From the NCBI GenBank assembly GCA_951406725.2, contig OX597814.1, positions 30,628,001 through 30,692,000 on the forward strand: a stretch of 64,000 nucleotides of DNA. The letters run 5' to 3'. The stretch comes from Octopus vulgaris. Lineage: Eukaryota. Both the position numbers and the translations under genes were made by a program. The notes under the pieces are model-generated. The model was not told the DNA's origin, ran no database searches, and saw only the letters and a list, made by a program, of their open reading frames with translations. Positions 4,278 to 59,218 of the stretch are shown here, piece by piece. The number at the start of each line of letters is the position of its first letter. Positions within the stretch are counted from its first letter, which is position 1.

Positions 4278-5173
4278 GACAGTACAAACATATAAACAGT
4301 AAAAAATATATATATAAACAGTGGAAAAATAAATATATAACAGTGAGAGACAGGACAAGGAGAACAAGATAAGAAGGGCTGTTAACGCCAGACGAAAAAA
4401 GTATTGCAAACGCTGGATTATAGTGGACGACGAGAGAGGAAGATGTCGACCAGTGGCCTTAGAAGGCAGGCGAGAAAGGACGGGATAGCAGTTACGACGG
4501 AAGTACGTCGCAGATGGACGGCGGGAATTGGGGAGGAGGAGCAAGAGGAAGAGAGAGAAGGAGGGGAATGGTGCGAGGAGACCATGAAGAACAGTGAGGG
4601 GAGAGAGAGAGGAAGAGACAAGTTAAGTGAGGGAAAAAAGACGAAAAAAGGGAATGGGAGAGAAAGAAAGAAAGATGCAGAGTCGCGTGAGAGTTAATAT
4701 CAAGGCGAACTTGATAAACAGAACAATCTTACTTAATAGGGTGCGTGCGTTTAGTCGTATAATATGTTAATAAAATATATGCATATATATAAACATATAT
4801 GTACGTACCTACCTCTACATGTACATATACACGCATATATGTGTACAGGACACCAAAAGGACGTCGAACACATAGAGAGACGAAAAAACAGAACATAGAC
4901 GAAACACATAGAAACCAAGGAACAAGACAAGCAAAAAAAGGGAGATACAGGACAATAAGCACAACGAAAAATCCCCTTCTTCAGTCGCTAAAGTTTCATC
5001 TACTAAACGTTTCGAAGGATAAAAGCGAGACGTATACTTCGAATGAAAAATTCCTTCCCGCGAAAAGCAAATCAATTAAAATTCTGAGATCTTGTCGCAG
5101 AGGGGTAAAAAAAGCAAGACGGTAACGACAGTACAAACATATAAACAGTAAAAAATATATATATAAACAGTGG

Positions 5174-5177
<4 letters not shown>
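4278..5177 (-). mobile_element. PLE-like non-autonomous element with ~50-bp terminal direct repeats
   Basis: GACAGTACAAACATATAAACAGTAAAAAATATATATATAAACAGTGGAAAA at 4278 and 5127; abuts (TA)n; carries the reversed-order HHR-like motif. Confidence 0.55.
4971..5033 (-). ncRNA. reversed-strand-order hammerhead-like motif (candidate)
   Basis: Minus strand: ACGUC|UCGCU-uuu-AUCCUUC-GAAA-CGU...AGCGA-CUGAAGA-AGGGGAU; all three helices can form. Confidence 0.55.
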
Positions 5178-5227
<50 letters not shown>

Positions 5228-7702: not shown

Positions 7703-8530
7703 TGAGGTCTGATCAATAAGTATCCGGACTGATGCTATAAAAACAAAACTATAAGTACCAATTTGCTATTTAATCTTCTTCAGTCTCCTTCGGGACTCAT
7801 ACACATAATCCAGTGCTGTTTCCACTGATGGGAGCATTCCTGGAGCTCGTTTTCTGGGATGAACAGCAACTGCCTCATCGCATTCACTTTGGTTTTCTCG
7901 ACATCCTGAAATCTTCCTTTCAAGCGGGATTTGATTTTTGGAAAGAGGAAAAGTCGCAACGGGAATACGGTGGCTGTTGGACTTGAGGAATGGTGTGCCC
8001 AGCCTAAAAACCGTTGCACAAGCTGCTATGAATGAACAGGGGCATTATCAGCTGAAAGCAGTTTTGGCACAAACTTGGTAGACACGCGTCCCATACCCAA
8101 ATCTTCAATGATAATGGACTGAACTGAACCGTAACTAATCTGCACATCGTCAGATAACTCACGGATGATGATTCAACGATTTCCCCTCAGAGCTGCACGC
8201 CCACCTGCGATGTTTTTCTCAGTTCTGCTGGCTGCAGTTCTCCCACAATGTTCGTCATTATCGACAATTTTTCGTCTCATACATTCCGCTTCATACACTT
8301 TCTGCAAATTTGCGTAGGCCTCTGATTAGGTATCGCCAAGCTTTTGGCAAAATTTGATGCAGATTTAAAGTCAATGCGACGATCACATACTACACTGGTT
8401 CCTTCTAAGCACTGCTGTAAACAGCAGAAGGGAGCTAGAGCGTTATCACTTAGTGCGCTATCTTTGCCAAGCGGCTTCACTCTGCTTTGTCACTATGGCA
8501 ACAGTCCGGATACTTATTGATCAGATCACG
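7703..8530 (-). mobile_element. internally deleted mariner transposon
   Basis: TIRs (TCTGATCAATAAGTATCCGGACTG) with TA TSD at both ends; transposase remnant FLFPKIKSRLKGRFQDVEK...QWKQHW. Confidence 0.9.
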
Positions 8531-9883: not shown

Positions 9884-10325
9884 GAGTGAGAGAGACACTG
9901 GGGTAAAATATACGATGCCCAGTATACCCATCATGACTACCCGTCTGATAAGGGTACACCAGGCACATGCATCACAGTTAATTTTTAAAGTTAAATTAAA
10001 ATACATGAGCAGCATCAGTTCTCACATCGACAATGCTCTTCTCAATACGTGTGATGTACCAGTTAAGACAATTTTTTGCACTTCTTGCAGGGATGGTAAG
10101 CCAGGGATCATTCTCATATAATTTTCGGTTCCCTTCTTGATCATTCCTAGTGCTCCTACGATCACTGGTATTGTAACCGCCTTGAGATGCCACATTTTCT
10201 CAATTTCAATGTGTAGGTCTTTATATTTTCTGAGCTTGTCAAACTCTTTCGCTGAGATATTATGATCACAGGGGATGCTCATGACGATCAATAAGCAAAC
10301 TTTATTGTTTTGGTCTTTCACAACA
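9884..10325 (-). mobile_element. R4/Dong LINE 3' end (restriction-like endonuclease plus 3' UTR)
   Basis: ORF 10022-10321 EFDKLRKYKDLHIEIEKMW...VIVGALG; flanked on both sides by (AAT)n. Confidence 0.88.
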
Positions 10326-10328
10326 ACA

Positions 10329-10411
<83 letters not shown>

Positions 10412-16824: not shown

Positions 16825-19005
16825 GATGAACAAGTGGCGTCGTGAAACCGTCGAGTCGTCGGTGACTAAACTGGCACCCCACTAAGCTTGCTTGGTGAGG
16901 AGGGTGAATTTTCGACACCCTGCAGGATTAAAAACAAAGCCCGGCAAAGACCAGTGGTATTCAAAAGAGTCAAGACAGGGAGACACAACTCGTGAGCCTT
17001 GGTTGGCAGTCTGCCTAGGAGAAGGAATACTCTGATTTCAAAACTGGGGTAGATAGGACTCCTTAGTCACAGTGGTGAAAACCTGTCCCCTGACAGTCAA
17101 CCCCGGCTCCTGCGCAAAACCAACAGAAGTGTGGAAAAAGGCGAGTGTCTGACGCCTCCAAATAACCGGTGCTTCGGGTAGGCTGTACTCGTTAGCCTTG
17201 GGTGGCAAGCAGCCTAGAAGAAGGAATACTCCAATCCCAAAACAGGGGAGCAAGGATCCTACCGCCTTGGCGGACTACCTTGATAGAGATGGTGTCTCGA
17301 TAAAAATATCTATTTCTTTACTACCCACAAGGGGCTACATACAGAAGGGACAAACAAGGACAGACAATGGATTAAGTCGATTACATCGACCCCAGTGCAT
17401 AACTGGTACTTAATTTATCGACTTCGAAAGGATGAAAGGGAAAGTCGACCTCGGCGGAATTTGAACTCAGAACGTAGTGGCAGACGAAATACCACTAAGC
17501 ATTTCGCCCAGCGTGCTAACGTTTCTGCCAGCTCGCCACCGTTTGCTAGTAACCTAAAAACACACCACATTTGTGAGTGAAAATGCCAAGCAAAATAAAT
17601 GACGATAACAGTGTGAACGGGACTGGAACCAATGGTGAAGATGCCGCACCCGGCAGGTGCCCCACTGTGCAGCAGGGTGGGCACGGTCGCAATCCAACAA
17701 CTGCAAGCCATACTAACCTTGCGTAGATCTGAGCCGCATAGAAGAATGGTCCAAAGGAAATGGAAAAATAGAAAAGAAAATGCAAGGGCATATCTAGATG
17801 TGAAGTACCAAATAGAAAATAAAGTGTTCAAAACTGTAATCGAAACCCTAAAACAACATGTGCAGGCAGCAAAACCGGTTATTCTCAAATAACCAGAGGC
17901 AGCTTTTTAAGGGCTTAGAAGGATATACGGAAAATAATACACCTCCTGAAGCAGAAGAAACCCGACGGTTTTGGAATAACACCGGGGGTAATAAGTTTCG
18001 CAAAACCAGTGCTGAGTGGATTCATTCCATGAGATCCGAACTCCATCACCCGGGGACTCCACGACAGGACTATGTGCGCATAACAACGGAAGATGTCATT
18101 GCACAGATATCAAAATTGCCAAACTGGAAAGCAGCAGGACCAGACAGAAATCAAGGCTACTGGATCAAATGGTTTGGGTCAAAACACAAGAGAATTGCGT
18201 TGCAATTAGACAAATGCCTACAGAGCGGTGCAGTTCCAGAGTGGATGGTAGAGGGAAGAACAACATTGTTAATGAAAGACCGGTCAAAGAGCAATGAGGT
18301 TGGCAATTACCAACCCATTGCTTGTCTTAACCTCCTATGGAAAATATTGACAGGTACCCTCGTAGGGAAAATATATACGTTCCTTGCGGAAAACAATCTA
18401 CTGCCAGTAGAACAAAAGGGATGCTGAAAAGGATCCAAGGGCACCAAGGACCACCTTGTGATATACAAGATTATAATGAAGAATTGTAAACGGTACTAAA
18501 AAAACATATGCATGGCATGGATAGACTTCAAAAAGGCTTAAGACATGTTGCCGCATTCGTGGATTTTGGAAACATTCGACATGTGTGGAATAGCTGAGAA
18601 CGTGTGTGCAATGACGATGGGTACAAGTACCTTGGGATCCTGGAGCTGGACAATATCTTGCACAAAGAAATGATAGACAAGTTCATCACTGCATATTTCA
18701 AGCACCTCAAACTTGTCTTGAAATCAAAGCTCATCTCAGGGAATCTTGTGACTGCTTTCAACATATGGGATGTTGCTGTAGTCCGCTATATTGCACCCAT
18801 CCTGAAATGGACACAAGTGGAGATTGACCAACTCGATCGCACTACAGTATGCTGCTAGCACAGAAGGAATTAACAAAAATGGACTTGAGAGTGTTCATGA
18901 ATTCCGATCAAGAACAGCCAACGAGATAGAAGAAACCCTACTCCGTATGGAATTATATGGTCAGTTCCACCGTGAAACCAACAAATTACAAGACCAGGCA
19001 GTCAG
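16825..19005 (+). mobile_element. internally deleted R4/Dong LINE (putative 5' leader plus RT fragments)
   Basis: ORF 17858-18427 KLPNWKAAGPD..GYWIK..PEWMVEGRTTLLMKD..GNYQPIACL..EQKGC; then WIDFKKA.DMLPHSW and YKYLGILE..LKSKL.SGN; 5' boundary uncertain. Confidence 0.85.
17311..17540 (-). mobile_element. SINE B (Tx1-like tail subfamily) nested in the Dong leader
   Basis: Full head plus tail AGCCCCTTGTGGGTAGTAAAGAAATA. Confidence 0.9.
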
Positions 19006-29721: not shown

Positions 29722-30844
29722 GAGGCAATTGAAATATGCTATTCAAATGACCGTTAAACAAAGGGAAATTACTATGTAATTGACCATTATTAAAACAAAA
29801 GAGCTATTAGAATGACCTTTAAATAAAGGAAAAAACCGAAGGGGAGGAAGTAAAAAGTAAAGGAGTAAAAAAGCTTATAGCAATCGCATATGCGTGTATG
29901 TACATACATGCACATGCGCGCAACGCACCCACGTACACGTGCATATATGCATATGTTCACTCAGGCTCGCATGAAGCACATACATGCTCACCCACACATA
30001 CGCCAAATAGATGCACACATAGATGCAACCATGCATGTACACGTATACAAATCCACATATACACACACGCACATACCCATACACGCACAGTTATATTCAA
30101 ATACACGTCTAAAAATACGCACATGCTGTATGTTCGCTCACACTCGCGTGGAACATATGCATGTACACCCACACATACATGCAACCATGCACATGTACAT
30201 ATATGTGTACATGTACACATGCCCGCACATACGCACACACACACGCACGCACGCACGCACACGAGCGCGCGCGCACACACACACACACGTGCACGTACCC
30301 ATACGCGTACAGTTATATTGAAATGTACGTCTAAAATACATACATGCTATATATGCATATGCTCGCTTACACTCGCGTGGAATACTGGCATGTACATATA
30401 TATATATGTACACACATATATATATATATATAGGAATAAAATATATATATATAAAGAAACAAGAACGTGAAATACACAAAGGGACGAACAGAGAAAACAG
30501 ACGGGTCATTCGAAGCCTTTAATCTTCAGTCAGAAACCGGATCATCATAGCAAATTTCGCACACACACACACGCGCACAAAATATTCATATACACGTCTA
30601 TATACGCACATGCACAATAAAAATCCAGGGAGGAATTTGAAACACAGGAAAAAACGTGTAAAAATATATAAAGCAATAAAAATATAAAAATATATCTCTA
30701 TAAATATGTAAAAAAATATATAAAAAATATACAAGAAATATATATAAAAAGTATAGAAAGATAAAAAGCTTGTGCGTGGGCACAATATAAAAAGCAAGTT
30801 CTATCTGTGATCTTTGGGGGGGGGGACCAAAAACGTAACTAAAT

Positions 30845-32791: not shown

Positions 32792-32877
32792 TTCCCTGAT
32801 GAGAAGATTGCACTGTTTTACAGCATTGTGTTTCTTCTGTAATGATACCAATGTTTTCTTCGAAACATATGTCGGAA
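32792..32877 (+). ncRNA. intact type I hammerhead (in inverted repeat 32717-32940)
   Basis: Identical core and stems to 31474-31559. Confidence 0.85.
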
Positions 32878-50310: not shown

Positions 50311-51595
50311 ACACCCGTTAAAAGGAGGGCTGGGCATGCCGTGGTTGATGATGCGCAGACACGCGCTGAGACTGCGGCATCTCTGGCTCTATGTAGACGA
50401 CGGTGAACAGGTGTGGTCGCCGTTTGTGAGGCACGCTTTCCCGCAGCTCGTCTCCATGACCGAACTGCAGTCGTGGATCAAAAAGAGGCCGAGGAAGGGC
50501 GAATGGCACCGCGAGTGTCGCGTTGCTCTCAAGCAACTCTGCCGTCCTGGGTCGACCTTAAGTGACTTCAACACAACCAAAGCATTCTATAGGGGTTTAG
50601 TGGAGGGGAGGTACGACGACGAGCTCGGGGCGAACCTGGACGTCGACGAGGAGTACCTGACCCGCCTGTTCAGGACGACTTTCGGGCCAGGGCCCATGGA
50701 CAACTTCCAGAGATCCCTGGCCTGGCAGTGCTACCGAGAAGCGCTACCCGTTCGGGATAAGCTCTACAGACACGGCTCGAGAAACACGGGGCCGACCTGC
50801 CCGAGATGCGGTCAGAGCGACGAAACCGTTCTGCACGCACTCGTTCAGTGTCCAACAATTTCCGACCTGTGGGCTTATGTCGAACAACTGCTGTCACGTG
50901 TGGGACGAGTCGGTTTATCAGCTGAGTCTATCGTCAATATTGTCACGCCTCCTTCCTTCAAACGGGAAGGAAGAGCTATTTTCATCATCCTTGTGGCTAT
51001 GGCGAAAGAATGTATCTGGTGGACGCGTCTGAAAGGATTGGAGATAAACACTTTCCTCTCTGGTCAATCTCTCATCAACTTCTTCAAGTACCACTTGAAA
51101 AGGAAAGTGAGAGTAGAGAGGCAAGTTTTGTCTAGCGAATGTTTTAAAAAAAGATGGGTGAATGTAGCAAGAATGGCACGTATGAATGACGAAGCCACCT
51201 TGAGCATAGTCCTATGAACCCAGAAATCGAAAAGAGAGTTGCTTATTTGCAAAAAAAAAAAAAAAAAAAGAAATATAAAATGTGACTTCATTCACCGAGG
51301 TTACCGTGGTCTTTTCCGTAGGCTTTTCTTTCCACGGGTAAACCTCACCTGTCCTCCCCTTTACACTTCATATTGACATTTCTGTGATAACGATCCCTAT
51401 TGATCAATTTTTTTTTTCTCTCCCCTTTTTTTTAACCCCGCTTTTTTGTCCTCTTTCTCTCCTTTTACGATCTCTTTTGATCGAAACTCCCCCTTCCTTT
51501 TTTTTTTTTTTTTTTTTTTTAAACCTTCAAAAGAAAAGCTCTACCTTGTAATTTGTTCTATCTGTGTGCAGCCCTGTGTGGCTAATAAAGAAACA
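50311..51595 (+). mobile_element. 5'-truncated Tx1/L1-like LINE
   Basis: GC-rich coding body, T-rich 3' UTR, ends AATAAAGAAACA followed by TATCTATCT. Confidence 0.88.
50336..51217 (+). CDS. C-terminal part of Tx1/L1-like ORF2 (post-RT region plus CCHC zinc finger)
   Basis: Frame open from upstream PLKGGLGMP; W...R.ALP..D.L motif; [18 protein letters not shown]; AKECIWWTR. Confidence 0.8.
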
Positions 51596-58793: not shown

Positions 58794-59218
58794 AATTAAG
58801 GCCAACAGACCAGATATAGTTGTCAGAGATCATGAAGAAAAAAATGCTTTCTAATTGATGTATCAATACCGGCAGATGACAACGTGTCTCTAAAGGAAAT
58901 GGAGAAACTCTCAAAATACAAAGACCTGGAAATAGAGGTAACTAGAATGTGGAATCTGAAAACAGAAACAATTCCTATCATAGTAGGTGCATTAGGCATG
59001 ATAAAAAAATATTCAGACAAATACATAACAAAAACACCAGGACTTACAAACACATATAACATACAGAAAATTGCACTACTAGGCACTGCACACATCCTAC
59101 GCAGAACACTTTCCATACAATAACCATCAGAGCATCACAACAAATCACAGCAAATACCCAAGGCACACAGAGCTGCGCTCGGTAGTGAAGTGAAAGCACG
59201 CTATAAAAAATAAAACTA

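Follow-up and report, generated by a model that had tools for sequence, protein, structure and literature searches.

We consider it likely that a hammerhead ribozyme (HHR) with a rewired backbone is active in a non-autonomous, retrozyme-like repeat unit of Penelope-like elements (PLEs) and also in many Naiad PLEs, there within the 3' UTR. The unit, here called family A, is represented by a copy on the minus strand of the window, the 64,000-nucleotide stretch of Octopus vulgaris DNA that was analysed. The case is built from pairing across copies of family A, the recurrence of the same pairing in independent families, and the positions at which insertions of these repeats begin.

Blocks and helices of the window motif

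The three strands reported in the initial annotation are present on the minus strand at 5033-4971, in the reversed order given there. Positions 5033-5024 read ACG-UC|UCGCU, followed by UUU and by AUCCUUC-GAAA-CGU at 5020-5007, and after a linker positions 4989-4971 read AGCGA-CUGAAGA-AGGGGAU. Both parts of the hammerhead core, C3UGAnGA9 and G12AAA, are present, and the blocks follow the order S->G->C (GUC site, GAAA at 5013-5010, CUGAAGA at 4984-4978) instead of the C->G->S order of types I, II and III, of which S->G->C is, as had been claimed, no circular permutation. The order itself is not new: in the parts of the paper available to us, Eckert et al. introduce the block notation S, G, C and base type SGC, known from metatranscriptomes, on 583 sequences; its stems I and II are typically joined by three bases, it has an additional, fourth helix termed "I", and it cleaves in vitro, and type CSG is reported from two sequences (Eckert et al., 2023; PMC10085705). 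As the annotation had it, the short linker connects stems I and II at their distal ends, and U16.1 lies 14-17 nt from G12 in 44/44 copies.

The full rewired motif spans 5105-4973 (minus strand, as for all positions in this paragraph) and is larger than the fold reported before. It opens with the 5' strand of helix P4 (5101-5105), which pairs with 4977-4973 and closes the whole motif, and continues into the P5 hairpin (5058-5100, stem 5100-5095/5063-5058), which abuts both P4 and the next strand with zero linker. That strand, X (5052-5057, with 5057 as G10.1), is the putative 5' strand of stem II and pairs with 5019-5014. The 5' strand of a helix that links stems I and II, the counterpart of Eckert's "I" helix, follows at 5042-5048 and pairs with 5000-4994; then come the stem III strand ACG with U16.1 (5030) and C17 (5029) at 5029-5033, the predicted cut at 5029/5028, the stem I strand 3' of the cut (5024-5028, assigned by pairing across 44 copies), a short linker (5023-5020) and the 3' strand of stem II (5014-5019, with 5014 as C11.1). 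The GAAA core (G12-A15.1) and the stem III strand CGU occupy 5007-5013, as judged by sequence and alignment, the 3' strand of the I helix 4994-5000, and the 5' strand of stem I (4989-4985) with the CUGAAGA core (C3-A9, 4984-4978) 4978-4989. The 3' strand of P4 (4973-4977) lies directly after A9 and is the strand that the initial annotation had assigned to stem II, as AGGGGAU/AUCCUUC, a pairing that needs either A.C at 10.1-11.1 or an inserted A and two G.U pairs. That drawing misses four of the seven helices (the true stem II partner, P4, P5 and the I helix), and since X lies outside 5045->4960, the construct proposed with it for in vitro cleavage would lack the strand that most likely forms stem II.

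A descriptor scan of the window for all six block orders returned one SGC match, at the motif, together with two canonical type I motifs inverted relative to each other and a single weak, overlapping parse as GCS, and 40 block-shuffled windows gave 0 SGC matches. Rfam produced no match at gathering score anywhere in the 64-kb window, and its hammerhead models none up to E=10 around the motif. MFE folding of the 86-nt stretch outlined in the annotation gave no signal (z 0.77), as is expected for pseudoknots. P4 and P5, whose 5' strands lie outside that stretch, appear in the MFE fold. The bases before X had also been considered as a 3' splice site, a reading that we rejected on finding that they are the P5 stem. 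The spacing GAAA-N25-CUGA, said to recur in three dissimilar elements, occurs at seven sites in the window, with the full CUGAnGA at only two (5013 and 30558); these two belong to different families, and the third element was not found. A candidate at 8183 fails the hammerhead descriptor.

Elsewhere in the window, the canonical type I hammerheads at 32792-32877 (+) and 31559-31474 (-) form an inverted pair with long stem II and palindromic stem III, as expected for PLE ends cleaving as dimers, and a CUGAUGA core at ~59390 (+) resembles the start of a type I hammerhead. The open frames at 10022-10411, 17852-18427, 58836-59123, 50312-51217 and ~7900-8300 resemble LINE remnants and a mariner-like remnant.

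Stem II pairing in family A and in independent families

We aligned 44 distinct copies of family A, picked by eye for retaining the upstream part of the motif; copies with 5' truncation, near-duplicates, several copies with internal deletions or rearrangements and the diverged Naiad-type motifs were set aside. Helix tests were anchored on alignment columns, because a free parser for X, P4 and P5 is weak alone, shuffles reaching its top score in 0/300 cases for the window copy and 8/300 for L148. Pair counting found 95.8% of 953 cells paired, compared to 88.8% after shuffling (0/500 shuffles), and 41-47% in slid registers; double changes occur in 11/22 pairs, a covariation that goes back to a few switches between subfamilies (~six types of stem I and four of stem III), not to 44 events. 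Watson-Crick pairing stood at 94.5% versus 63.1% re-dealt for stem I, 90.9% versus 65.6% for stem III, 91.5% versus 85.5% for P4 and 92.6% versus 80.3% for P5 (0/2000 for each). The invariance of the core in this alignment is forced by the search patterns; the cleavage site, which lies outside the search pattern, conforms to NUH, with A15.1-U16.1 in place, in 44/44 copies (GUC 17, GUU 16, GUA 9, AUC 2). The motif is conserved, and of the three helices whose covariation the annotation asked to be examined, stems I and III covary strongly, the stem II drawn there being poorly paired.

Stem II formed through X (5057-5052 with 5019-5014) is 95.9% Watson-Crick in the 44 copies and its closing pair G10.1-C11.1 is G-C in 43/44, whereas a stem II strand placed 0-2 nt after CUGAnGA, which an intact block C would supply, reaches 34-38%. 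Copies of family A show almost no variation in the upstream stem II, and 190/2000 shuffles match it. G8-A9 and the next three bases can replace X (92.7% Watson-Crick; -6.3 vs -6.8 kcal/mol), in a fold that would be inactive. If X is the stem II strand, Eckert's I helix must fall between the joiner after X and the joiner before stem I, and a helix is present in this rewired position, after X, with -7.6 kcal/mol against -3.8 for shuffled, -3.5 for cross-subfamily and -2.7 for downstream alternative pairings. The downstream alternative, a fourth helix at 5000-4994/4970-4963, was rejected, the upstream partner being stronger in 41/44 copies; in the window copy itself it beats the I helix, at -6.8 vs -5.0.

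The stem II assignment is decided by independent families, in which the upstream stem II is also paired. Family B, dissimilar in sequence to family A, has 3758 genome matches and 0 in the control; its copy in the window (30453-30559, minus strand) has the same fold but is 5'-truncated, beginning at ~C11.1, a start that, as in many related copies, falls immediately past the predicted cut. Counts from 14 full copies among 30 show the upstream stem II paired in 66/70 cells, compared to 3/70 and 25/70 for registers after CUGAnGA, with stem I paired in 84/84, stem III in 56/56, and a P4 that extends to 15 bp and whose junction has a UU/UU step. A decayed autonomous Naiad of this genome (14/30 copies) gives 78/84 for the upstream stem II versus 34/70 and 39/70, its P4 being paired in only 61/84. 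The sequence of stem II varies between families, always pairs and opens with G10.1-C11.1. We conclude that stem II is most likely formed by the upstream strand X and not by the strand after CUGAnGA.

These counts bear directly on the possibility of a plain type SGC ribozyme, in which stem II would come from the strand that follows CUGAnGA, with the pairs G-C, G.U, G.U and G-C after a single inserted base, and P4, P5 and X would make up an inhibitory switch fold. Family A can form the required 4-bp wobble stem, G.U included, in 72-76% of cells, the HRIMA-1 example of Eckert et al. has a one-base insertion after A9 in the alignment part available (PMC10085705), and partial cleavage (see below) fits a switch. 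The duplex is weaker, however (-5.0 vs -6.8 kcal/mol), forming it costs P4, and the I-helix partner tracks X and not the post-A9 strand. Moreover, this stem is nearly impossible in family B (3/70, 25/70), which has the sharpest pile-up of insertion ends, and by eye cannot form in the Acropora, Plae, Darwinula, Clytia and Movir-2 Naiad consensi, so that we regard a plain SGC ribozyme as quite unlikely.

Host repeats and insertion 5' junctions

The family A copy of the window (4278-5189, minus strand) starts in a (TA)n run and belongs to a repeat with a unit of ~838 bp that is without recognisable coding frame and often occurs as partial tandems. Its copies share a fixed 3' end ~256-260 nt after the cut site, at 4758-4764 (-) in window coordinates, where they run into (TA)n; this is the case at 27/30 loci, a set in which six pairs overlap, two further loci being cut by the locus edge and the window copy reading through until a piece of another repeat cuts it off at ~4280. 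The 5' ends are variable, and this layout corresponds to what Craig et al. (2021; PMC8557442) describe for PLEs. A 131-base stretch containing the motif gives 1771 candidates across the 2.8-Gb genome, with 99-100% identity in the 40 that were scored, and in 34 alignments the identity is 96-100% over >600 nt; by this measure family A is young. Tandem non-coding units, a fixed 3' end, 5' truncation and a microsatellite target are thus all found in family A, with the permuted motif in place of the type I HHR per unit that marks non-LTR retrozymes.

Neither family A nor family B encodes a protein, and neither motif was found at 30 Naiad reverse transcriptase (RT) loci. The two families share fold and target with Naiads, and no sequence link beyond the fold was found. 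The motif of the decayed Naiad itself lies 1.1-1.75 kb downstream of the Naiad RT in 9/30 loci, and in 3/7 of another set; no intact Naiad ORF was detected among 145 matches (150/1736 candidates scored), whose longest open frame has 292 aa. A loose two-core pattern matches 8403 sites in the genome, compared to 396 for the reversed control, and one of these matches agrees base for base with the 3' motif in the Naiad_Ovul consensus already published. Five loci (L065, L101, L105, L133 and L158) carry diverged motifs of the same order, which represent further old families, some of them probably other Naiad lineages, and a Naiad-like RT remnant at L245 does not belong to the main decayed family.

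Reverse transcription of a cleaved template has to end at the cut, and the 5' ends of insertions can be read accordingly. Family A insertions were gathered by a marker lying ~190 bases 3' of the site, which gave 89 rows; 9 of these were removed because they overlapped others or were segmental duplicates. Among those reaching the motif, 13/58 begin 0..+13 after the predicted cut, compared to 1/45 at -14..-1, a rate ratio of 11.7 over background with a nominal p of 3e-9, which is optimistic because the 14-base window was picked after the pile-up was visible and the loci of a second family A sample (23/29 of the truncated copies, in a set of 79) partly coincide with those of the first. The family A peak lies at +5..+12, not at 0, and 45/58 insertions cross the site, so either cutting is partial or the RNA re-ligates. 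Family B provides an independent repeat of the test: 14/30 copies begin at 0..+13, one of them being an internal deletion; three start precisely at 0, and none begins at -1..-56. In the decayed Naiad the peak is weak (4-5/30). At several loci (L054, L107/L177, L066, L071 and L266) inverted 5' copies are seen, with the fold-back junction 0-10 bases after the predicted cut. We regard the pile-up as an indirect trace of what may be cleavage in vivo.

Ends of this kind might also arise if the motif were a conserved non-catalytic RNA of hammerhead descent, serving as a binding or start signal for a PLE protein, with RT stalling or fold-back producing the pile-up. Consistent with this, the peak of family A falls 5-12 nt inside the site, GAAA is overlapped by a palindrome, several junctions are inversions, and for an anole PLE the available part of the report describes HHR mutants that left insertion in vitro unaffected and no reads ending at the site (PMC11167929). 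Nevertheless, NUH is kept in 44/44 copies although it was outside the search pattern, the family B pile-up ends exactly at the predicted bond, and stalling is countered by the stronger helices P4 and P5, at which family A insertions show no pile-up. We therefore judge a non-catalytic role unlikely.

PLE hammerheads are reportedly known to cleave as dimers, from work of Lunse in 2017, and the units studied here occur in tandem. The motif might accordingly be active only as a dimer, or only with a PLE protein, its helices forming between two tandem units, which would remove topological strain. Protein-assisted cleavage has been reported for the anole PLE, whose ribozyme, in the text available, needed protein and whose main substrate was uncut RNA (PMC11167929). 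Against a dimer, stem III is not palindromic, all seven helices can form within ~135 nt, and the SGC ribozymes of Eckert et al. cut in cis, as described in the portion of the paper available (PMC10085705), making this requirement very unlikely in our view.

Naiads, related ribozymes and a proposed mechanism

Naiads have been described as lacking a canonical HHR, with only "HHR_core" or "HHR_half_core" flags and some cores that fit no descriptor, and as having a (TA)n insertion bias (Craig et al., 2021; PMC8557442; parts available). We parsed the visible parts of 54 Naiad rows in the supplement of that paper by eye, without statistics, several names being inferred from file order. The four-way fold was recognised by eye in 10 of the published consensi, from five phyla: one ctenophore, one Clytia, three Acropora, Movir-2, Plae, one Darwinula, Obim and Ovul. 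Each of the ten has its own stem II sequence, starting with G-C, and the ctenophore Naiad has a stem I of just 2 bp and UU/UU at the junction. All 8 nematode rows (supplement parts 13-16) read by eye as ordinary type CSG in Eckert's sense, with the I helix. Ptep has stems I and III in SGC order and no clear stem II in its visible row, no parse was obtained by eye from the visible Euprymna, Saccoglossus-2, Stegodyphus and other Darwinula consensi, and the bivalve passages contain no such motif. Two clam Naiads in the part visible (supplement part 23) have in common a different terminal motif, which may be another structured RNA. The annotation's suggestion that the motif occurs in a PLE lineage reported without canonical HHRs is borne out, the same fold being found in this genome's decayed Naiad and, by eye, in published consensi, and the rewired hammerhead is probably the "missing" Naiad ribozyme.

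In the part of Eckert et al. (2023; PMC10085705) available, CUGAnGA and its adjacent paired bases are assumed to be inseparable. The present motif shares with types SGC, CSG and GCS the cyclic block order and the short linker between stems I and II, and also the I helix, which joins the strand before the 5' side of stem I to the strand after the 5' side of stem II. Unlike SGC, block C is split here between A9 and G10.1, two extra helices create a four-way junction, and the host is an animal retroelement; the supplement text searched holds no eukaryotic RefSeq rows among the SGC alignments, its 26 NW_ matches all being twister seeds. Judged from its sequence, the motif is a new hammerhead variant of the non-circular cyclic class that lacks the intact block C of type SGC. 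Weinberg et al. reportedly described hammerhead variants in 2015. In the literature searched, outside of which lie subscription journals and that 2015 report, we found no account of permuted hammerheads in Naiads or animals and none of a helix pair between A9 and G10.1. The parts available of PMC13725137, PMC12192606 and PMC13159263 likewise mention neither permuted Naiad or animal hammerheads nor A9/G10.1 helices, and Perreault 2011 (PMC3088659) lists, in its accessible portion, core insertions of 1-2 bases only. The natural PK hammerhead is similar in having an extra helix and a pseudoknotted helix II region while keeping the G8/G12 mechanism; in the text available, its extra helix IV branches from helix I, and, unlike here, the strand is continuous and its loop is closed by A9.G12 and G10.1-C11.1 (Zhan et al., 2024; PMC11300833).

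As hosts, families A and B resemble Naiads, as described in the accessible parts of PMC8557442, in targeting (TA)n, in having a fixed 3' end and truncated 5' ends, and in forming partial tandems and inverted 5' copies; the Naiad 3' UTR of this genome contains the same ribozyme fold, and families A and B differ from Naiads in being non-coding. With non-LTR retrozymes, which derive from PLEs, they share non-coding tandem units with one HHR each and, probably, the PLE origin, but those elements, in the portion of the preprint available, are defined and searched by type I HHRs, with descriptors that miss a permuted motif such as this (bioRxiv 10.64898/2026.07.22.740005; Cervera and de la Pena, cited therein).

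The catalytic metal site of the hammerhead is formed by the A9 phosphate and G10.1. We propose that the core blocks follow the non-circular cyclic order C->S->G, with the chain opened inside block C: after A9 the strand would exit into the closing helix P4, and hairpin P5 would then lead to G10.1. P4, P5, stem II and the A9.G12 stack would form a four-way junction replacing the A9-G10.1 backbone link, with stems I, II, III and the I helix crossing as pseudoknots. Coaxial stacking of P4 on P5 and of stem II on A9.G12 would preserve the shape of the catalytic core and leave G8, G12 and the metal site in place. The RNA would self-cleave after GUC (5029/5028), only partly, and a PLE RT acting in trans would start from a (TA)n nick, ~256 nt 3' of the site. 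RT stopping at the cut end would yield short insertions, and uncut or re-circularised RNA may give rise to the partial tandems.

Taken more broadly, we find it reasonably probable that Naiads of several phyla carry functional non-circular hammerheads, of type CSG in nematodes and elsewhere of a seventh arrangement in which a four-way junction separates CUGAnGA from stem II, that the >10,000 pattern matches in this genome outnumber all published examples, and that the junctions record cleavage in vivo. If true, this would settle how Naiads, which dominate many invertebrate genomes, proliferate seemingly without the hammerhead of other PLEs, and would move non-circular RNA permutations from rare metatranscriptome circles to high-copy animal genomes. 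CUGAnGA would not need to run straight into stem II, so that present ribozyme descriptors would miss a whole class, and the A9/G10.1 step would be a new site for plugging domains into the hammerhead core. Whether PLE ribozymes cut the transposition template is a question on which genomic evidence is rare, and the junction pile-up provides some.
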